Shown here piece by piece: positions 3,087 through 11,940 of a stretch of DNA of 64,000 nt. This DNA comes from Escherichia coli. Lineage in GTDB: Bacteria > Pseudomonadota > Gammaproteobacteria > Enterobacterales > Enterobacteriaceae. The stretch lies in assembly GCF_050920415.1 (NCBI RefSeq), contig NZ_CP169309.1; one strand, written 5' to 3'. The position numbers were made by a program, and so were the translations under genes. The notes under the pieces are model-generated. The model did not search any database. It saw nothing but the letters and a program-made list of their open reading frames with translations, and had not been told where the DNA came from. How positions within the stretch are numbered: the first letter of the stretch is position 1; each line of letters starts with the position of its first letter.

Positions 3087-4196
3087 ATGAACGAACAATC
3101 CCAGGCCAAATCACCAGAAGCCTTGCGCGCAATGGTCGCCGGGACACTGGCCAATTTTCAGCACCCAACCCTGAAGCATAACCTCACCACGCTGAAAGCG
3201 TTGCACCATGTCGCCTGGATGGACGACACGTTGCATGTGGAACTGGTTATGCCATTCGTCTGGCATAGCGCGTTCGAAGAGTTAAAAGAGCAATGTAGCG
3301 CTGAACTGCTGCGCATCACCGGGGCGAAAGCTATCGACTGGAAACTGTCGCACAATATCGCCACCTTAAAACGCGTGAAGAATCAGCCGGGAATTAACGG
3401 CGTGAAGAACATCATTGCGGTCAGCTCCGGTAAAGGCGGCGTGGGTAAATCCTCCACGGCGGTAAATCTGGCGCTGGCACTGGCGGCGGAAGGGGCGAAA
3501 GTCGGCATTCTGGACGCCGATATCTACGGCCCATCAATACCCACCATGCTGGGCGCAGAAAATCAGCGTCCAACTTCGCCGGACGGTACCCATATGGCAC
3601 CGATTATGTCTCATGGACTGGCAACCAATTCAATTGGTTATCTGGTCACTGACGACAATGCGATGGTGTGGCGTGGTCCGATGGCGAGCAAGGCGTTAAT
3701 GCAGATGTTGCAGGAAACCTTGTGGCCGGATCTCGACTATCTGGTGCTTGATATGCCGCCAGGCACCGGTGACATTCAATTGACACTGGCACAAAACATT
3801 CCAGTAACTGGCGCGGTAGTGGTCACCACCCCGCAGGACATTGCGTTGATCGATGCGAAAAAAGGCATTGTGATGTTCGAGAAAGTCGAGGTTCCGGTGC
3901 TCGGTATTGTCGAGAACATGAGCGTGCATATTTGCAGTAACTGTGGTCACCATGAACCGATTTTCGGTACCGGTGGTGCAGAGAAACTGGCCGAGAAATA
4001 CCACACGCAGTTGCTGGGGCAGATGCCGTTACACATCTCCTTACGTGAAGATCTCGATAAAGGCACGCCAACGGTTATCAGCCGTCCGGAGAGCGAATTT
4101 ACCGCTATCTACCGCCAGCTGGCTGACCGCGTTGCAGCCCAGCTTTATTGGCAGGGAGAAGTCATTCCTGGCGAGATTTCCTTCCGCGCGGTCTGA
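3087..4196 (+). CDS. apbC: Fe-S cluster carrier ATPase ApbC/Mrp
   Basis: ORF 3057..4196; start moved to MNEQSQAKSPEAL (AAGGA RBS upstream); Walker A GKGGVGKSS; divergent from metG as in K-12. Confidence 0.9.
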   Translation: MNEQSQAKSPEALRAMVAGTLANFQHPTLKHNLTTLKALHHVAWMDDTLHVELVMPFVWHSAFEELKEQCSAELLRITGAKAIDWKLSHNIATLKRVKNQPGINGVKNIIAVSSGKGGVGKSSTAVNLALALAAEGAKVGILDADIYGPSIPTMLGAENQRPTSPDGTHMAPIMSHGLATNSIGYLVTDDNAMVWRGPMASKALMQMLQETLWPDLDYLVLDMPPGTGDIQLTLAQNIPVTGAVVVTTPQDIALIDAKKGIVMFEKVEVPVLGIVENMSVHICSNCGHHEPIFGTGGAEKLAEKYHTQLLGQMPLHISLREDLDKGTPTVISRPESEFTAIYRQLADRVAAQLYWQGEVIPGEISFRAV

Positions 4197-4458
4197 CGCG
4201 TATTAACCTTTTTGGTTGTTTTTCGTACACCGCAGAGATGTTACATTGATGCGGTGTATTTGTTTTTGCCGCATTAATGAACACTTATTTAATGCTGCGA
4301 ATATTCTGCGGACCTTCGTCCGAAACTCTATAAAGTCGATTGATCGTACAGGCAATGCTTCATTATCATCCTTCGTGGCTGTGTAGTGGATGTACAGCTA
4401 TAGTTTGTTATGCACTCATTCTATCCAGGCATAACCTTTACTACAGGGATAACGTTCA

Positions 4459-4740
4459 ATGAATAAGTACTGGCTGTCAGGAATTATTTTTCTTGCCTAT
4501 GGAATGGCTTCTCCCGCGTTCTCTTCACAGACTGCCACATTAACGATTAATGGCAGGATCAGTCCCCCAACATGCAGTATGGCTATGGTTAATGGTCAAC
4601 CTCAACAGCATTGTGGTCAGTTAACGTATGATGTTGATACCCGTCATCAGGTTTCTTCGCCAGTCAAAGGTGTGACGACAGAAGTGGTTGTTGCAGGTAG
4701 CGATAGCAAACGTCGAATCGTGTTAAATCGCTACGATTAA
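4459..4740 (+). CDS. yehE: Small secreted protein YehE (DUF2574)
   Basis: 93 aa ORF with N-terminal signal peptide, upstream of the yeh fimbrial genes. Confidence 0.8.
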   Translation: MNKYWLSGIIFLAYGMASPAFSSQTATLTINGRISPPTCSMAMVNGQPQQHCGQLTYDVDTRHQVSSPVKGVTTEVVVAGSDSKRRIVLNRYD

Positions 4741-4773
4741 TTTGCCACCCTAGTTCTTTAAGCGGATTTAGAA

Positions 4774-4812
4774 AGCTGAAATCATTCGCGTGAATGATTT
4801 CAGCTTTTTTAT
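4774..4812 (+). terminator. Rho-independent terminator after yehE
   Basis: 14 bp perfect stem AGCTGAAATCATTC / GAATGATTTCAGCT followed by a T6 run. Confidence 0.7.
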
Positions 4813-5035
4813 TGATATTAATAATACCATTTAAAAAAATCTGCATTAATTAATAGATGTGATAAATATTTAATATGCTTAAGTATTTGTTGTATTTATA
4901 TTGCAATGGTTAATTTGTTTTAAATCAATAAAACAATATGTTTACATTGCGGCAACTTTTTTGATGTGAGAAATTTGTTTCCAAGAGATACAGACTCTTA
5001 ACAACCAAAAAATAAATTTTATTAAGGAACATATT

Positions 5036-5578
5036 ATGAAACGTTCAATTATTGCTGCCGCTGTCTTTTCTTCTTTTTTTATGAGCGCTGGGGTATTTGC
5101 CGCAGACGTTGATACCGGAACATTAACCATTAAAGGGAATATTGCAGAATCTCCGTGTAAATTCGAAGCGGGTGGCGATTCAGTAAGTATTAATATGCCA
5201 ACTGTACCAACCACTGTCTTTGAAGGTAAAGCTAAATACTCGACCTATGATGATGCAGTCGGTGTAACCAGCAGCATGTTAAAAATTAGCTGTCCGAAAG
5301 AAGTTGCTGGTGTAAAACTCTCGTTGATTACCAACGATAAAATAACCGGAAACGATAAGGCGATAGCCAGTAGCAACGATACCGTGGGGTACTATCTCTA
5401 TTTAGGTGATAACAGCGATGTCCTGGATGTTTCTGCACCTTTTAACATTGAAAGTTATAAAACAGCGGAAGGTCAATATGCCATTCCGTTTAAAGCGAAA
5501 TATCTGAAACTGACAGATAACTCAGTGCAATCAGCTGATGTGTTATCTTCTCTGGTTATGCGTGTGGCGCAGGATTAA
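5036..5578 (+). CDS. yehD: Fimbrial major subunit (chaperone-usher)
   Basis: 180 aa, signal peptide, pilin-like size and composition; first gene of yehDCBA. Confidence 0.88.
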   Translation: MKRSIIAAAVFSSFFMSAGVFAADVDTGTLTIKGNIAESPCKFEAGGDSVSINMPTVPTTVFEGKAKYSTYDDAVGVTSSMLKISCPKEVAGVKLSLITNDKITGNDKAIASSNDTVGYYLYLGDNSDVLDVSAPFNIESYKTAEGQYAIPFKAKYLKLTDNSVQSADVLSSLVMRVAQD

Positions 5579-5612
5579 TAAATAAAATTTCAAATTTCCC
5601 CAGGTAATAAAC

Positions 5613-5641
5613 ATGGCCGCTATCCCCATGGCGGCCTTTTA
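5613..5641 (+). terminator. Stem-loop plus T-run after yehD (attenuator/terminator)
   Basis: GGCCGC...GCGGCC hairpin followed by TTTT between the pilin and chaperone genes. Confidence 0.5.
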
Positions 5642-5658
5642 ATTTAAGAGGCATTAAG

Positions 5659-6333
5659 ATGAAAGGATTATTAGCTTTACTTATTTCTTCTATGGTCCTT
5701 CCTGCGCATGCCGGAATTGTTATCTACGGGACGCGCATTATTTACCCGGCAGAAAATAAAGAAGTGATGGTGCAGTTGATGAACCAGGGAAACCGTTCTT
5801 CGCTGCTGCAGGCGTGGATTGATGATGGCGATACGTCGTTACCACCAGAAAAAATTCAGGTTCCTTTCATGTTAACGCCACCAGTGGCAAAAATAGGGGC
5901 AAATTCCGGGCAGCAAGTAAAAATCAAAATTATGTCGAATAAACTGCCCACTAATAAAGAGAGCATTTTTTATCTGAATGTTCTGGATATTCCACCAAAT
6001 AGTCCAGAGCAAGAGGGCAAGAATGCACTGAAATTTGCAATGCAAAACAGAATCAAATTGTTTTACCGGCCTGCGGGTATTGCACCGGTAAATAAAGCGA
6101 CATTTAAAAAGTTACTGGTAAATCGCAGTGGCAATGGATTGGTGATAAAAAATGACTCAGCAAATTGGGTAACGATTTCGGATGTCAAAGCTAATAATGT
6201 TAAAGTCAATTATGAAACTATCATGATTGCACCATTGGAAAGTCAGAGTGTTAATGTCAAAACTAATAATGCGAATAGCTGGCATCTGACCATTATCGAT
6301 GACCATGGCAACTATATTAGTGACAAAATTTAA
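5659..6333 (+). CDS. yehC: Periplasmic fimbrial chaperone (PapD-like)
   Basis: 224 aa ORF with signal peptide, immediately upstream of the usher. Confidence 0.88.
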   Translation: MKGLLALLISSMVLPAHAGIVIYGTRIIYPAENKEVMVQLMNQGNRSSLLQAWIDDGDTSLPPEKIQVPFMLTPPVAKIGANSGQQVKIKIMSNKLPTNKESIFYLNVLDIPPNSPEQEGKNALKFAMQNRIKLFYRPAGIAPVNKATFKKLLVNRSGNGLVIKNDSANWVTISDVKANNVKVNYETIMIAPLESQSVNVKTNNANSWHLTIIDDHGNYISDKI

Positions 6334-6348
6334 TTGCAGGAGCTACCT

Positions 6349-8829
6349 ATGTTGAGAATGACCCCACTTGCATCAGCAATCGTAGCGTTATTGCTTGGCA
6401 TTGAAGCTTATGCAGCTGAAGAAACTTTTGATACTCATTTTATGATAGGTGGAATGAAAGACCAGCAGGTTGCAAATATTCGTCTTGATGATAATCAACC
6501 CTTGCCAGGGCAGTATGAAATCGATATTTATGTCAATAAGCAATGGCGAGGGAAATACGAGGTTATCGTTAAAGATAATCACGAAGAAACATGCCTGGAA
6601 AGGGAAATTATAAAGCGATTGGGTATTAATACCGATAACTTTGCCAGCGGTAAGCAATGTTTAACATTTGAGCAACTTGTTCACGGTGGGAGCTATACCT
6701 GGGATATCGGAGTTTTTCGTCTCGATTTCAGTGTACCGCAGGCGTGGGTGGAAGAACTGGAAAGTGGCTATGTTCCACCGGAAAACTGGGAGCGGGGTAT
6801 TAATGCGTTTTATACCTCTTATTATGTGAGTCAGTATTACAGCGACTATAAAGCGTCGGGTAATAGCAAGAGTACATATGTACGTTTTAACAGCGGGTTA
6901 AACTTACTGGGGTGGCAACTGCATTCTGATGCCAGTTTAAGTAAAACAAATAGCAATCCAGGGGTGTGGAAAAGCAATACCCTGTATCTGGAACGTGGAT
7001 TTGCCCAACTTCTCGGCACGCTTCGCGTGGGTGATATGTACACATCAAGCGATATTTTTGATTCTGTTCGCTTCAGCGGTGTGCGGTTGTTTCGTGATAT
7101 GCAGATGTTGCCTAACTCGAAACAAAATTTTACTCCACGGGTGCAGGGGATTGCTCAGAGTAACGCGCTGGTAACTATTGAACAGAACGGTTTTGTGGTT
7201 TATCAGAAAGAGGTTCCTCCTGGCCCGTTTGCGATTACAGATTTGCAGTTGGCCGGTGGTGGAGCAGATCTTGATGTCAGCGTGAAAGAGGCGGACGGTT
7301 CGGTAACCACCTATCTGGTGCCTTATGCAGCAGTGCCGAATATGCTGCAACCCGGCGTGTCGAAATATGATTTTGCGGCAGGTCGTAGCCATATTGAAGG
7401 GGCGAGCAAACAAAGTGATTTTGTTCAGGCGGGTTATCAGTATGGTTTTAATAACTTATTGACGCTGTATGGCGGATCGATGGTCGCGAATAATTATTAC
7501 GCGTTCACTTTGGGGACTGGCTGGAATACACGCATTGGTGCCATTTCCGTCGATGCCACGAAGTCGCATAGTAAACAAGACAACGGCGATGTGTTTGACG
7601 GGCAAAGTTATCAAATTGCCTACAACAAATTTGTGAGCCAAACGTCGACGCGTTTTGGTCTGGCGGCCTGGCGTTATTCGTCGCGTGATTACCGGACATT
7701 TAACGATCACGTTTGGGCAAACAATAAAGATAATTATCGCCGTGATGAAAACGATATCTATGACATTGCCGATTATTACCAGAACGATTTTGGCCGTAAA
7801 AATAGCTTTTCTGCCAATATGAGCCAGTCATTGCCAGAAGGCTGGGGTTCTGTGTCCTTAAGTACGTTATGGCGAGATTACTGGGGGCGTAGCGGCAGCA
7901 GTAAGGATTATCAGTTGAGTTATTCCAACAACCTGCGACGGATAAGCTATACCCTCGCGGCAAGCCAGGCTTATGACGAGAATCATCATGAAGAGAAACG
8001 TTTTAATATTTTTATATCGATTCCCTTTGATTGGGGTGATGACGTTACGACGCCTCGTCGGCAAATATATATGTCTAACTCAACGACGTTTGATGATCAG
8101 GGTTTTGCCTCAAATAATACGGGATTATCGGGAACCGTTGGAAGCCGGGATCAATTTAACTATGGGGTCAACTTAAGTCATCAGCATCAGGGAAATGAAA
8201 CGACAGCTGGAGCGAATTTAACCTGGAACGCGCCGGTGGCAACGGTGAATGGCAGTTATAGTCAGTCGAGTACTTATCGACAGGCTGGAGCCAGTCTTTC
8301 AGGGGGCATTGTCGCCTGGTCGGGTGGCGTTAATCTGGCGAACCGTCTTTCCGAAACGTTTGCTGTGATGAATGCGCCAGGAATTAAAGATGCTTATGTC
8401 AATGGGCAAAAATATCGCACAACAAACCGTAATGGAGTGGTGGTATACGATGGAATGACACCTTATCGGGAAAATCACCTGATGCTGGATGTGTCGCAAA
8501 GCGATAGCGAAGCAGAATTACGTGGCAACCGGAACATTGCCGCCCCTTTTCGCGGCGCGGTTGTACTGGTTAATTTTGATACCGATCAGCGCAAGCCCTG
8601 GTTTATAAAAGCGTTAAGAACGGATGGGCAACCATTAACGTTTGGTTATGAAGTCAATGATATCCACGGTCACAATATTGGCGTTGTCGGCCAGGGAAGC
8701 CAGTTATTTATTCGCACCAATGAAGTACCGCCATCGGTTAATGTAGCAATTGATAAGCAACAAGGGCTTTCATGCACAATCACCTTCGGTAAAGAGATTG
8801 ATGAAAGTAGAAATTATATTTGCCAGTAA
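6349..8829 (+). CDS. yehB: Outer membrane fimbrial usher
   Basis: ORF 6334..8829; start set to ATG 6349 after a GGAG RBS (826 aa); large beta-barrel usher-like protein. Confidence 0.9.
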   Translation: MLRMTPLASAIVALLLGIEAYAAEETFDTHFMIGGMKDQQVANIRLDDNQPLPGQYEIDIYVNKQWRGKYEVIVKDNHEETCLEREIIKRLGINTDNFASGKQCLTFEQLVHGGSYTWDIGVFRLDFSVPQAWVEELESGYVPPENWERGINAFYTSYYVSQYYSDYKASGNSKSTYVRFNSGLNLLGWQLHSDASLSKTNSNPGVWKSNTLYLERGFAQLLGTLRVGDMYTSSDIFDSVRFSGVRLFRDMQMLPNSKQNFTPRVQGIAQSNALVTIEQNGFVVYQKEVPPGPFAITDLQLAGGGADLDVSVKEADGSVTTYLVPYAAVPNMLQPGVSKYDFAAGRSHIEGASKQSDFVQAGYQYGFNNLLTLYGGSMVANNYYAFTLGTGWNTRIGAISVDATKSHSKQDNGDVFDGQSYQIAYNKFVSQTSTRFGLAAWRYSSRDYRTFNDHVWANNKDNYRRDENDIYDIADYYQNDFGRKNSFSANMSQSLPEGWGSVSLSTLWRDYWGRSGSSKDYQLSYSNNLRRISYTLAASQAYDENHHEEKRFNIFISIPFDWGDDVTTPRRQIYMSNSTTFDDQGFASNNTGLSGTVGSRDQFNYGVNLSHQHQGNETTAGANLTWNAPVATVNGSYSQSSTYRQAGASLSGGIVAWSGGVNLANRLSETFAVMNAPGIKDAYVNGQKYRTTNRNGVVVYDGMTPYRENHLMLDVSQSDSEAELRGNRNIAAPFRGAVVLVNFDTDQRKPWFIKALRTDGQPLTFGYEVNDIHGHNIGVVGQGSQLFIRTNEVPPSVNVAIDKQQGLSCTITFGKEIDESRNYICQ

Positions 8830-8844
8830 TAGTCAGGTGGTTCT

Positions 8845-9879
8845 ATGAAAATTCGCATAATGCTATTTATATTAACGATGATGGTTATGCCTGTGAGCTA
8901 TGCAGCATGTTATAGTGAGTTATCTGTTCAGCACAATTTGATTGTTCAGGGGGATTTTGCACTTACTCAAACACAAACGGCGACATATGAGCATAATTTC
9001 AACGATTCATCATGTGTGAGTACAAATACCATCACTCCCATGAATTCATCGGATATTATTGTTGGGCTGTATAACGATACAATTAAATTAAATTTACATT
9101 TTGAATGGACCAATAAAAACAACATCACGTTGTCAAATAATCAGACCAGTTTCACTAATGGTTATTCGGTAACGGTGACACCTGCGGCCAGTAATGCAAA
9201 AGTGAATGTTTCTGCGGGGGGCGGCGGTTCAGTGATGATTAATGGTGTTGCGACATTATCCAGTGCTTCATCATCGACACGCGGGAGTGCTGCAGTACAA
9301 TTTTTACTGTGTTTATTCGGTGGCAAGTCATGGGATGCATGTGTAAATAGCTACAGAAATGCATTGGCACAAAATGCAGGTGTCTATTCCTTTAATCTGA
9401 CATTGTCATACAACCCGATAACCACAACCTGCAAACCGGACGATTTATTAATTACTTTAGAGAGTATTCCCGTTTCACAATTACCAGCTACAGGTAACAA
9501 AGCAACAATAAATAGTAACAAAGGGGATATTGTTCTGCGTTGTAAAAACTTATTAGGTCAACAAAATCAAACATCACGGAAAATGCAGGTGTATTTATCA
9601 AGTTCTGACTTGTTAACCAACAGCAACACAATACTGAAAGGTGCGGAAGATAATGGCGTAGGATTTATTCTTGAAAGTAATGGTTCTCCAGTCACACTTT
9701 TAAATATCACTAACAGCAGTAAAGAATACACAAATTTAAAAGAAATTGCGGCAAAGTCAAAACTTACAGATACAACGGTTTCAATTCCGATAACTGCCAG
9801 TTACTACGTCTACGATACAAATAAAATTAAATCTGGCGCACTGGAGGCAACCGCATTAATCAACGTGAAATACGACTAA
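8845..9879 (+). CDS. yehA: Fimbrial adhesin-like tip subunit
   Basis: 344 aa, signal peptide, last gene of the chaperone-usher operon. Confidence 0.85.
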   Translation: MKIRIMLFILTMMVMPVSYAACYSELSVQHNLIVQGDFALTQTQTATYEHNFNDSSCVSTNTITPMNSSDIIVGLYNDTIKLNLHFEWTNKNNITLSNNQTSFTNGYSVTVTPAASNAKVNVSAGGGGSVMINGVATLSSASSSTRGSAAVQFLLCLFGGKSWDACVNSYRNALAQNAGVYSFNLTLSYNPITTTCKPDDLLITLESIPVSQLPATGNKATINSNKGDIVLRCKNLLGQQNQTSRKMQVYLSSSDLLTNSNTILKGAEDNGVGFILESNGSPVTLLNITNSSKEYTNLKEIAAKSKLTDTTVSIPITASYYVYDTNKIKSGALEATALINVKYD

Positions 9880-9935
9880 TAACAAGCAAGACGAGCAAGT
9901 GGCTAATAATAAAAAATAACAAGGTGTCTGCATTT

Positions 9936-9962
9936 CCCCCTCATGATGAGGGGGCTTTTTTT
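9936..9962. terminator. Bidirectional terminator between yehA and rcnB
   Basis: CCCCCTCA-TGA-TGAGGGGG hairpin flanked by T-run (plus) and A-run (minus reads as U-run). Confidence 0.65.
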
Positions 9963-10299
9963 AGCGATGATAAAAAATCTCACCATCGTAGGCTTTAATG
10001 ATTTTACCGTCGGTGTCGCTGATCAACACGTACGCGCCACCCATATAGGTCCAGTGCGTCCCGGCATCAGGCGCGGGCAGGTTACGTAACTGCCACTGCT
10101 TAATGTTGTACTCATCGGTGCGGTACATCTCTGGGACGGTATCGCCTGGTTTGAAATGCTTAAAGTCAGCAATGAAACTGCTTAACTCATACTTAGAAAT
10201 TCCCGAGGTATTGGTCGAACCCGCGGTGGCTGGTGCGGCCCAGGCGGCACTGGTAACCAGCAAAAGCACACCCAGCAACATCTTATTTTTAATGGTCAT
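9961..10299 (-). CDS. rcnB: Periplasmic Ni/Co homeostasis protein RcnB (YohN)
   Basis: Internal start MTIKNKMLLGVLLLVTSAAWA within ORF 9961..10479 gives the 112 aa secreted protein; sits downstream of rcnA. Confidence 0.85.
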   Translation of the reverse strand: MTIKNKMLLGVLLLVTSAAWAAPATAGSTNTSGISKYELSSFIADFKHFKPGDTVPEMYRTDEYNIKQWQLRNLPAPDAGTHWTYMGGAYVLISDTDGKIIKAYDGEIFYHR

Positions 10300-10503
10300 A
10301 AACTCTCCACTTTGGGGATCTGTAATATCAGTCGCATATCTTTCCTGCCATACAATATAACTGACAAGCGATATTTTGTTAGTGATCCCATGATTTCGTA
10401 AAAAGTGTAAATGAAAGGATGCCCTAAAAGCATCCTTAGCGAGCAGAGAGCCAGCGGAAATAGCTGATTTAAGAATCATCCTGGGCTGAAGATAACATGC
10501 AGC

Positions 10504-11325
10504 CTATCGCATAATGCCCATAAAGCCATGCACGCCCATATACACCCCAACTAAGCCAATCAACAGACTGGAAAAATAGGGGGCACGTTTAGCGAGAGTG
10601 TTAAATCCGCTCCAGCGTTTTGCGACCTGCTGAACGCTGATTGCTGCGCCAACGCCTACGGTGACTAGCGTTAACGCCAGGCCAATGCTGAAACTGACGA
10701 CCAGTGTTGCGCCTAGTGTCAGGGCTTTCAACTGAATACAAATCAACAGCACGGTAATTGCTGCCGGGCAGGGGATCAGTCCACCTGTTAACCCAAACAA
10801 TAAAATTTGCCAGTTGGTCACTTCTCTGCCATTGAAGCGTCGTTTGATGTCATTGGCATGGGCTCGTGCATGAGCATCCTGATACTCCCCATGTTCGTGA
10901 TGGTGATGATGTCCATGGTCGTGGTGATCTTCGTGATCGTGATGATACTCATGATCATGCCCGTGCATATTCTCCAGCCAGTTGCGTTCGCCGCGCCAGG
11001 TACGCCAGAACATCCAGAACGCGGTGCCAATAATGATCACCGCGGAAATCAACTGGAGCCACGGTTCTGCAGATTGAGCAGTAAAACGTTTGCTGATCAC
11101 CATCCCGCCAAAGGCAATCAACCAGACCACCGCGGTATGCGAAATGGTTGCTGCCAGTCCGAGCATCACCGCCTGTTTAATGGTGCCTTTGATGGCGATG
11201 ATAAACGCCGCCATCATCGTTTTTGAGTGCCCTGGTTCCAGGCCATGAAGCGCACCAAGTAAGATGGCGCTGGGAATGAAGAACCAGGCGTTTCCTTGCT
11301 GAAGAAGAGTGGTAAATTCGGTCAT
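10504..11325 (-). CDS. rcnA: Nickel/cobalt efflux permease RcnA
   Basis: 273 aa membrane protein with His-rich loop HGHDHEYHHDHEDHHDHGHHHHHEHGE. Confidence 0.92.
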   Translation of the reverse strand: MTEFTTLLQQGNAWFFIPSAILLGALHGLEPGHSKTMMAAFIIAIKGTIKQAVMLGLAATISHTAVVWLIAFGGMVISKRFTAQSAEPWLQLISAVIIIGTAFWMFWRTWRGERNWLENMHGHDHEYHHDHEDHHDHGHHHHHEHGEYQDAHARAHANDIKRRFNGREVTNWQILLFGLTGGLIPCPAAITVLLICIQLKALTLGATLVVSFSIGLALTLVTVGVGAAISVQQVAKRWSGFNTLAKRAPYFSSLLIGLVGVYMGVHGFMGIMR

Positions 11326-11799: not shown

Positions 11800-11940
11800 A
11801 TCATCGCAACCAAACGACTCGGGGTGCCCTTCTGCGTGAAGGCTGAGAAATACCCGTATCACCTGATCTGGATAATGCCAGCGTAGGGAAGTCACAGACC
11901 ACCAGGTCATTGCTTCTTCACGTTATGGCAGGAGCAAACT
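11800..11940 (+). promoter_or_regulatory. TPP (thi-box) riboswitch, thiM leader
   Basis: Contains GGGGTGCCCTTCTGCGTGAAGGCTGAGAAATACCCGTATCACCTGATCTGGATAATGCCAGCGTAGGGAAGTC, which matches the thiM aptamer as I recall it; lies just upstream of the thiM start. Confidence 0.9.

Follow-up and report, generated by a model that had tools for sequence, protein, structure and literature searches.

An intact yehDCBA chaperone-usher pilus operon in Escherichia coli with a conserved upstream module and pilin-chaperone hairpin

Positions 4741-9879 of the 64 kb stretch of E. coli DNA analysed here (the window) are an intact yehDCBA operon, which encodes a pilin, a chaperone, an usher and a two-domain tip adhesin (Table 1). 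All four open reading frames are uninterrupted, lie on the plus strand and occupy a fixed site between apbC/yehE and rcnB, the RefSeq order being apbC-yehE-yehD-yehC-yehB-yehA-rcnB. The RefSeq ATG at 6349 was used as the start of yehB; the ORF listing reaches a TTG at 6334. The GC content of the operon is 41.6%, compared with 50.6% for the window. The operon was found in 5423 of 5426 complete E. coli genomes. Over the whole locus, the present sequence shares 99.9% identity with NZ_CP169399 and 95-97% with most E. coli, and just 3 of the 5423 matching genome records reach at least 99%, marking it as a rare allele. The 95-97% figure does not point to an unusual yeh allele as such, since apbC and rcnB differ from their K-12 counterparts to the same extent.

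Table 1. Features of the yeh locus (positions within the window).
Feature	Position	Strand	Description
yehE	4459-4740	+	93-aa secreted protein, DUF2574; just upstream of 4741-9879
yehE intrinsic terminator	4772-4813	+	16-bp stem (4772-4807), then T-run
AT-rich spacer upstream of yehD	4813-5035		21.5% GC; counterpart of the K-12 H-NS-bound 'promoter island'
Promoter-proximal module	4881-5035	+	conserved; from alignment across related loci
AAATCAAyAAAACA	4922-4935	+	invariant block within the module
GTTTACATTG	4940-4949	+	invariant block within the module
TGTGAGA	4965-4971	+	within the module
AAGGAA	5024-5029	+	Shine-Dalgarno/CsrA-type; within the module
yehD	5036-5578	+	major pilin, 180 aa; YehA in Hultgren naming
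Pilin-chaperone hairpin	5615-5645	+	stem 5615-5636, TTTTAATTT 5637-5645; ends 22 nt before the yehC ATG
yehC	5659-6333	+	periplasmic PapD-like chaperone, 224 aa
yehB	6349-8829	+	outer-membrane usher, 826 aa, intact
yehA	8845-9879	+	two-domain tip adhesin, 344 aa; YehD in Hultgren naming
YehA receptor-binding domain	8905-9423	+	codons 21-193; 9N4G match
YehA pilin domain	9424-9876	+	PF00419 at residues 184-344
Terminator at operon end	9936-9963	+	8-bp G+C stem, then CTTTTTTT; precedes convergent rcnB

Gene families were assigned with NCBIfam and Pfam. YehD has a signal peptide and a PF00419 domain (E = 3.6e-6); its nearest NCBIfam model is YehD, at 109 bits and under the 136-bit cut-off. YehC matches StcB and fimbrial chaperone families of NCBIfam over its full length (E = 1e-97 to 1e-103) and, despite this coverage, scores below the equivalog cut-offs; in the 99.9%-identical locus RefSeq names it a fimbria/pilus periplasmic chaperone. 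YehB aligns to NF011763 over residues 1-826 with 1741 bits (cut-off 933) and has no internal stop. An Rfam search of 4000-10400 at a permissive threshold returned two chance-level matches only. The gene identities and order given in a preliminary description of this DNA agree with the databases and with published orthologous loci. The locus is very probably the chromosomally encoded Yeh pilus operon, a chaperone-usher system of the gamma4 class with Salmonella Stc as its orthologue; placement in the gamma4 usher clade is by analogy, carried over from PMC12778044 and PMC7098969 (ushers 87-96% nucleotide-identical). YehD would then serve as the major pilin, YehC would fold subunits and carry them in the periplasm, and YehB would polymerise and export them into a fibre capped by YehA.

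YehA is best understood from its two-domain layout. Residues 21-193 are identical at 167 of 173 positions to the solved adhesin domain PDB 9N4G (E = 1e-105) and are followed by a C-terminal pilin domain; the whole protein scores 671 bits against the NCBIfam fimbrial-like adhesin model (cut-off 395). Residues S49, W143 and Y150 and the cysteines of C2-C37 and C136-C146 are kept, as in a 9N4G-type flap adhesin. The six substitutions relative to 9N4G are V13I, M25T, S47N, P48S, S85N and L138F, of which S47N and P48S adjoin the pocket-lip residue S49 and L138F lies in the flap; adhesin-domain identity of at least 99% occurs in just 10 of 4648 records. The preliminary description had taken a central region of YehA rich in Ser, Thr and Asn as suggestive of an adhesin domain. 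The enrichment is there (32% overall, up to 50% at residues 41-70 and 81-120), although it falls in the first half of the protein, within the receptor-binding domain of known structure, and it is the 9N4G match combined with the pilin domain, not this composition, that identifies the adhesin. At the fibre tip YehA would present an N-terminal receptor-binding domain with an alpha-helical flap, for which pectin is the ligand shown with the UTI89 protein (PMC12778044).

The gene immediately upstream, yehE, was missing from the preliminary description. Its product matches Pfam DUF2574 (E = 1.6e-51), and the gene precedes the pilin gene in most Yeh/Stc loci, also in those away from apbC. Residues 1-42 of YehE are homologous to the pilin N-terminus by profile-profile comparison (hhalign, 96.7%), the only comparison that was significant; BLASTP of YehE against YehD was not. 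A PDB sequence search with YehE gave no match, an AlphaFold2 model from a 19-sequence alignment (pLDDT 58.5) was too poor for a fold search, and our literature search on yehE and DUF2574 found no functional study. YehE is a small secreted protein of pilin origin whose gene travels with the operon, and it is a probable companion of the pilus system. The intrinsic terminator that follows yehE is strong in its context (-25.7 kcal/mol, z = -4.9, with none of 200 shuffles folding as well), and 8 of its 16 pairs carry compensatory changes over 16 lineages, a number reached by none of 500 shuffles. The yehD promoter should therefore lie downstream of ∼4810. The base of the stem covaries, whereas its upper part, ATCATT/AATGAT, is invariant; the window contains ATCATT-N6-AATGAT a single time, where 0.2 occurrences would be expected. 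Judged by eye, this sequence does not fit the Fur, ArgR, CRP, IHF or OmpR consensus.

No stretch of the 64 kb is richer in AT than the yehE-yehD spacer, which the preliminary description had noted as very AT-rich: only 0.036% of all 223-bp segments are as low in GC, with the minimum (21.1%) at 4802. Equivalent spacers in 26 related loci have 24-32% GC. The high-affinity H-NS motif TCGATAAATT, with two mismatches allowed, gave 85 matches against 68.6 expected and was uninformative. In K-12 the yehD/yehE spacer is among 78 H-NS-bound 'promoter islands' (PMC3661553, Table 1). A passage of PMC5797941, citing Korea 2010, places yehDCBA in the H-NS regulon with a 3.6-fold increase on SlyA overproduction, and for the K-12 orthologue both occupancy by H-NS and derepression when hns is mutated are on record (PMC3661553, Table 1; the same passage of PMC5797941, citing Korea 2010, Kahramanoglou 2011 and Oshima 2006). 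Forced expression yields visible Yeh fibres (PMC7098969), and CsrA binds the EHEC yehD 5'UTR (PMC11287998). The suggestion that the operon is cryptic and silenced by H-NS thus agrees with published experimental work on the K-12 and O157 orthologues. By orthology, transcription would begin within the spacer, past the yehE terminator; H-NS would coat the spacer and the AT-rich operon, bringing expression close to silence in laboratory conditions; and SlyA, ethanolamine and CsrA, the last at the 5'UTR, would modulate it.

The promoter-proximal part of the spacer is a 155-bp module conserved in Escherichia, Salmonella, Citrobacter and Superficieibacter, beyond the conservation of the neighbouring genes. 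Its median identity to other genera is 77%, compared with 58% for the pilin coding sequence and 53% for shuffles (range 70-91% against 54-82% for the pilin). Each of its motifs is present a single time per related locus and a single time in the window, and 5297 of 5325 matching records carry its 108-bp core at 95% identity or more. A sigma-70 scan found fewer promoter-like sites than in shuffles and none inside the module. We name no promoter, because visual inspection of the module revealed no acceptable -35/-10 pair; Salmonella stc is likewise without a known transcription start (PMC5137417). A structured leader RNA at the module is unlikely, since the RNAalifold consensus is just -3.1 kcal/mol and Rfam gave no match.

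Such conservation, with invariant blocks present once per locus, is what would be expected if a putative sequence-specific regulator acting on the module mainly governed expression, with H-NS silencing as a backdrop. The report of one group that loss of nucleoid-protein occupancy alone does not induce yehDCBA (bioRxiv 10.1101/2024.06.20.599902) points the same way. However, the locus contains no regulator gene, none is reported in the literature we searched, the module has neither a convincing consensus RNA fold nor an Rfam match, and a core promoter, a CsrA site and a ribosome-binding site could explain part of the conservation; we therefore treat this explanation as a tentative one, some way short of probable. 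Taken together, the conserved module, the YehE mini-protein and the invariant upper stem of the yehE terminator imply a somewhat bolder proposal, and a rather doubtful one, that the 'silent' AT-rich spacer may conceal a control circuit of its own, so far undescribed, with a putative sequence-specific regulator and perhaps a role for YehE in assembly or feedback. If true, that circuit would decide the timing of Yeh, Stc and Yhl pili. YehD of the present genome has a rare Gly167Ala substitution (codon 5534-5536), in a column 14 residues from the C-terminus that holds Gly in 18 of 19 family members; the exact Ala167 protein is found on 2 contigs and the Gly form on 1000 or more, and the nearest genome differs at this base. 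The change might impair assembly in the source strain. That it leaves the operon making few or no pili is nevertheless improbable, as Gly to Ala is a conservative swap and all four reading frames are intact.

The hairpin between yehD and yehC has a G+C-rich stem of 9 bp (6 G-C, -14.5 kcal/mol), followed directly on the 3' side by TTTTAATTT both here and in K-12; in the present allele, 6 of the first 8 bases past the stem are T. Judged by itself, the hairpin does not rise above chance (z = -1.36; 4 terminator-like sites compared with 5.3 expected in shuffles), and a hairpin so unremarkable within the window could be a neutral remnant or an element at the level of the DNA, with no role in stoichiometry. 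We consider this already disfavoured possibility very improbable: every one of the 39 related loci with a definable spacer has a hairpin at this junction, its stem sequences are unrelated and carry compensatory pairs, and the spacers of all 18 further lineages fold better than their own shuffles (z from -1.75 to -5.15). It is this conservation of position across lineages that leads us to accept the hairpin as real. The T-run described with it has fared less well. Only about one-quarter of the 39 loci have 5 or more T among the first 8 bases beyond the stem, and the run is absent in O157/Yhl-type alleles, E. albertii, S. arizonae and others. Since most other lineages lack the U-tract, it does not count among the conserved traits of the hairpin, so termination and stabilisation of the mRNA 3'-end are both possible. 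Attenuation, as first suggested, is plausible, and stabilisation fits equally well. In the latter case the hairpin, by analogy, might act mainly as a barrier to 3'-exonucleases, stabilising a processed or read-through-derived yehD transcript, and not as a terminator. A stem kept in every locus while the T-run is mostly lost would suit such a role, as would RT-PCR in EHEC, where the allele without the T-run gives a single transcript across the locus and hence read-through (PMC11287998); the pap and CFA/I operons are cited in a passage of PMC4423207 as cases of differential mRNA stability. On the other hand, UUUUAAUUU directly after the stem, here and in K-12, is the classic terminator layout. 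We accordingly give the exonuclease barrier appreciable weight without preferring it. Our choice, held with modest confidence, is that the hairpin gives an excess of pilin message over the chaperone, usher and adhesin messages, in the present allele probably by partial intrinsic termination, which we propose because its U-tract is present.

The Yeh operon, its silencing by H-NS, the fibres, the adhesin structure and the role in gut colonisation are already known, given the published work on K-12, UTI89 and O157, which covers H-NS binding and repression, control by SlyA, CsrA and ethanolamine, fibres, pectin and gut colonisation. Finding the operon here is by itself correct but ordinary, and matters little. 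The present analysis adds the conserved pilin-chaperone hairpin, the 155-bp module and the yehE mini-protein; the conserved control region and the RNA hairpin seem not to have been dissected before. The coordinates of the module and hairpin are targets for mutation that may help researchers working on Yeh, Stc and Yhl, and the comparative results point toward yehE as a likely fifth Yeh component.

Among known systems, Yeh of K-12 and UTI89 (yehDCBA, or yehABCD in Hultgren naming; adhesin domain PDB 9N4G) lies at the same apbC-yehE ... rcnB site, has the same four genes with the same lengths at 95-97% nucleotide identity, and shares the hairpin with its T-run, the upstream module, adhesin residues S49, W143 and Y150 and both disulfides. 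The present locus differs from it as a rare allele with six adhesin-domain substitutions and YehD Gly167Ala. The Yhl ('Yeh-like') pilus of phylogroup E/O157 (adhesin domain PDB 8V9V) has, in strain 9000, the same apbC-rcnB site and layout and shares yehE, the hairpin and the upstream module (91% identical). Its pilin, chaperone and usher genes are 80-87% identical in nucleotide sequence to those of the present operon, whereas its receptor-binding domain is unalignable by sequence to that of the present YehA, with BLASTP aligning only from residue 148. The T-run after the hairpin is absent from Yhl, and yehB is a pseudogene in strain 9000.

Salmonella Stc (stcABCD) and the Citrobacter and Superficieibacter homologues show the same gene order, have a yehE homologue upstream and a spacer with 24-32% GC, and carry both the 155-bp module and a hairpin between the pilin and chaperone genes. 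The Salmonella and most Citrobacter loci occupy the same chromosomal site beside apbC (PMC3559732), whereas those of Superficieibacter lie away from it. Protein identity to the present operon is ∼30-38% for the pilin and 56-71% for the chaperone; their hairpin stems have other sequences, and the T-run is frequently lacking. The pap and CFA/I operons resemble yeh in having a stable stem-loop right after the major pilin gene and ahead of the assembly genes, where the need for pilin greatly exceeds that for usher or adhesin. According to the work cited in a passage of PMC4423207, differential mRNA stability has been shown experimentally in both, and for yeh it would hold by analogy. The two operons fall into usher clades different from that of yeh, and pap additionally relies on cleavage by RNase E upstream of papA.

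The window carries a complete pilin-chaperone-usher-adhesin set, yehDCBA, as the preliminary description had proposed. All four ORFs are intact, with lengths as in K-12, and NCBIfam and Pfam assign them to pilin, PapD-like chaperone, usher and adhesin. Together with the gene order, referenced to RefSeq record NZ_CP169399 (99.9% identical to the window locus), these data confirm the identity of the operon. Beyond rcnB, the ORF list and the same record place rcnA, rcnR and thiM, in that order. The locus is near-universal, being found in 5423 of 5426 complete E. coli genomes, and is chromosomal and single-copy in nearly all. YehD and YehC score 109 and 325 bits against NCBIfam equivalog models with cut-offs of 136 and 372, and thus fall below them; these models bear the names of these very E. 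coli proteins. In the flank, the His-rich rcnA differs in length among strains (822, 825 or 852 nt), and a TPP riboswitch is annotated 5' of thiM in the near-identical record L001.

Features of the yeh locus and its flanks in the window
Feature	Position	Remark	Source
apbC	3087-4196		ORF list, NZ_CP169399
yehE	4459-4740		ORF list, NZ_CP169399
yehE terminator stem	4772-4807	16 bp	
GC minimum	4813-5035		
Conserved module	4881-5035	155 bp	
Proximal part aligned with K-12 and O157 type	4893-5035	143 bp	
Block AAATCAAyAAAACA	4922-4935		
Block GTTTACATTG	4940-4949		
yehD	5036-5578		ORF list, NZ_CP169399
yehD codon 167	5534-5536	GCT (Ala)	
yehC	5659-6333		ORF list, NZ_CP169399
yehB	6349-8829		ORF list, NZ_CP169399
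yehA	8845-9879		ORF list, NZ_CP169399
Receptor-binding domain of YehA	8905-9423		
rcnB	9961-10299	strand opposite to yeh genes	ORF list, NZ_CP169399
rcnA	10504-11325		
TPP riboswitch	~11810-11906		L001

The 295 bp spacer between yehE and yehD has 25% GC and contains the minimum of the 64 kb window (21.5% GC; 0.036% of 223 bp windows are equally low), while the operon as a whole has 41.6% GC compared with 50-54% in its neighbours. The orthologous K-12 spacer is among 78 H-NS-bound ‘promoter islands’ (PMC3661553). According to a further study, two data sets list yehDCBA in the H-NS regulon; the operon is termed cryptic and H-NS-repressed there and is upregulated 3.6-fold by SlyA overproduction (PMC5797941). 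The locus is also a static protein-occupancy domain that is not induced by loss of occupancy alone (bioRxiv 10.1101/2024.06.20.599902). In EHEC it has its own promoter and forms one RT-PCR-detectable transcription unit, whose expression is increased by ethanolamine and whose yehD 5'UTR is bound by CsrA (PMC11287998). Forced expression gives fibres visible by electron microscopy (PMC7098969). Expression in the wild type and fibre formation on overexpression have thus in effect been examined by others on the K-12 and O157 orthologues, with outcomes that favour the earlier reading. These published H-NS, SlyA, EHEC and fibre data on orthologous loci support the interpretation of a cryptic, H-NS-silenced operon with an AT-rich upstream region.

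The start of yehD transcription can be bounded from upstream. yehE is followed by a strong terminator, a stem and T-run with a fold z of -4.9, in which 8 of 16 pairs show compensatory changes across 16 lineages (matched by none of 500 shuffles). Given this compensated pairing, the sequence implies that the yehD promoter must be located 3' of about 4810. Between genera the lower part of the stem covaries freely and the six upper pairs (ATCATT/AATGAT) hardly change, which is unusual for a plain terminator. The spacer itself falls into a distal part and a conserved promoter-proximal module. In a comparison of the window with 13 further loci, most of which belong to other genera, median identity was 77% for the module, 66% for the chaperone CDS, 61% for the yehE CDS, 58% for the pilin CDS, 56% for the distal spacer and 53% for shuffled controls. 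Conservation of the module thus exceeds that of the flanking coding sequences across Escherichia, Salmonella, Citrobacter and Superficieibacter. Its proximal 143 bp are 99% identical to K-12 and 91.5% to the O157 type, as against 83% and 71% for the distal spacer, and identity reaches at least 95% over a 108 bp core in 5297 of 5325 matching records. Two blocks are essentially invariant and occur once each in the window. Among 37 Yeh, Stc (the orthologous Salmonella fimbriae) and Yhl (‘Yeh-like’) loci, L001-L037, at least one block lies 5' of the pilin gene in 33 and both in 27; four (L013, L029, L032 and L033) have neither. Searches of the module yielded no assignable promoter or known regulator, no stable RNA fold and no Rfam match; no transcription start is known for Salmonella stc either (PMC5137417).

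The window contains a second non-coding element, the hairpin followed by a T-run that had been noticed between yehD and yehC. On the evidence of the window alone, this hairpin is not exceptional (z -1.36) and terminator-like sites are not enriched. Nevertheless, every one of the 39 related loci with a definable spacer has a strong G+C-rich hairpin between the pilin stop and the start of the chaperone gene. Its stem sequences are unrelated from lineage to lineage, with compensatory pairs both among Escherichia loci and in the Citrobacter/Salmonella group. Each of 18 further pilin-chaperone spacers folds better than its own shuffles (z -1.75 to -5.15). On these comparisons the hairpin, whichever mechanism operates, most probably shifts mRNA levels in favour of the pilin over the genes that follow it. 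The T-run is found in the window, in K-12 and in a minority of other lineages, and is missing in the O157/Yhl type, E. albertii, S. arizonae and others. For the window allele we favour partial termination at the hairpin, which would leave surplus pilin mRNA. Alternatively, the hairpin could protect the mRNA 3' end, a parallel to pap and CFA/I, for which such protection is known (PMC4423207).

YehE (93 aa, DUF2574) carries a signal peptide, contains two conserved cysteines and is predicted to be secreted. Its N-terminal TATLTINGRxxxPTC shares homology with the N-terminus of the pilin (residues 1-42; hhalign 96.7%, E 3e-10), with an additional weak Pfam cross-hit, and its C-terminus is conserved as RQIVLNRYD. 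The gene lies 5' of the pilin gene in most Yeh/Stc loci, including loci away from apbC (L011, L014, L016, L017 and L032), and is absent from a few. An AlphaFold2 model was of poor quality and a literature search found no functional study of YehE; the fibre-producing clone of Elpers and Hensel contained yehE (PMC7098969).

YehA is an adhesin: residues 21-193 match crystal structure 9N4G (167 of 173 identical, E 1e-105) and residues 184-344 form a PF00419 pilin domain. In the scheme of the Hultgren laboratory the genes are lettered A to D by transcription order, hence the label ‘YehD’ for 9N4G. The 9N4G adhesin binds pectin, and the pilus helps gut colonization (PMC12778044). The Ser/Thr/Asn-rich region previously taken to suggest an adhesin does lie in the receptor-binding domain (50% at residues 41-70 and 81-120) but is not what identifies it. 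S49, W143, Y150 and the four domain cysteines are retained. Relative to UTI89, whose adhesin-domain sequence is identical to the K-12-like one, the window carries V13I, M25T, S47N, P48S, S85N and L138F; S47N and P48S adjoin the pocket-lip residue S49, and L138F falls in the flap. The allele is rare: among 4648 matching E. coli genome records, 10 are at least 99% identical to the window in adhesin-domain DNA, with 2179 at 95-99% and 2436 at 90-95%. In strains F11 and SF-173, IS1A insertions break yehA. The pilin also varies, YehD codon 167, 14 residues from the C-terminus, being GCT rather than the usual GGT. Gly occupies this position in 18 of 19 family members, and the exact Ala167 protein was found in 2 contigs of a large collection, whereas its Gly counterpart is on at least 1000. 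Judged from sequence, Gly167Ala may influence pilus assembly in this strain.

The Yeh system is already known, and our analysis confirms the finding and supports its reading; for specialists, modest leads come from the conserved module 5' of yehD, the comparison of hairpins and yehE. Published work places the operon in the γ4 usher clade, neighbouring Yhl and Salmonella Stc (PMC12778044). In O157 strain 9000 (L003), the adhesin encoded at the apbC-rcnB site (7642-8676) is that of PDB 8V9V, ‘YhlD’, including its receptor-binding domain. Since an 8V9V-type adhesin occupies the same site, Yhl is, by sequence comparison, an allelic replacement of Yeh in strain 9000. Its flanks are 97% identical to those of the window, whereas the adhesin domain is unalignable and yehB, intact in the window, is a pseudogene.
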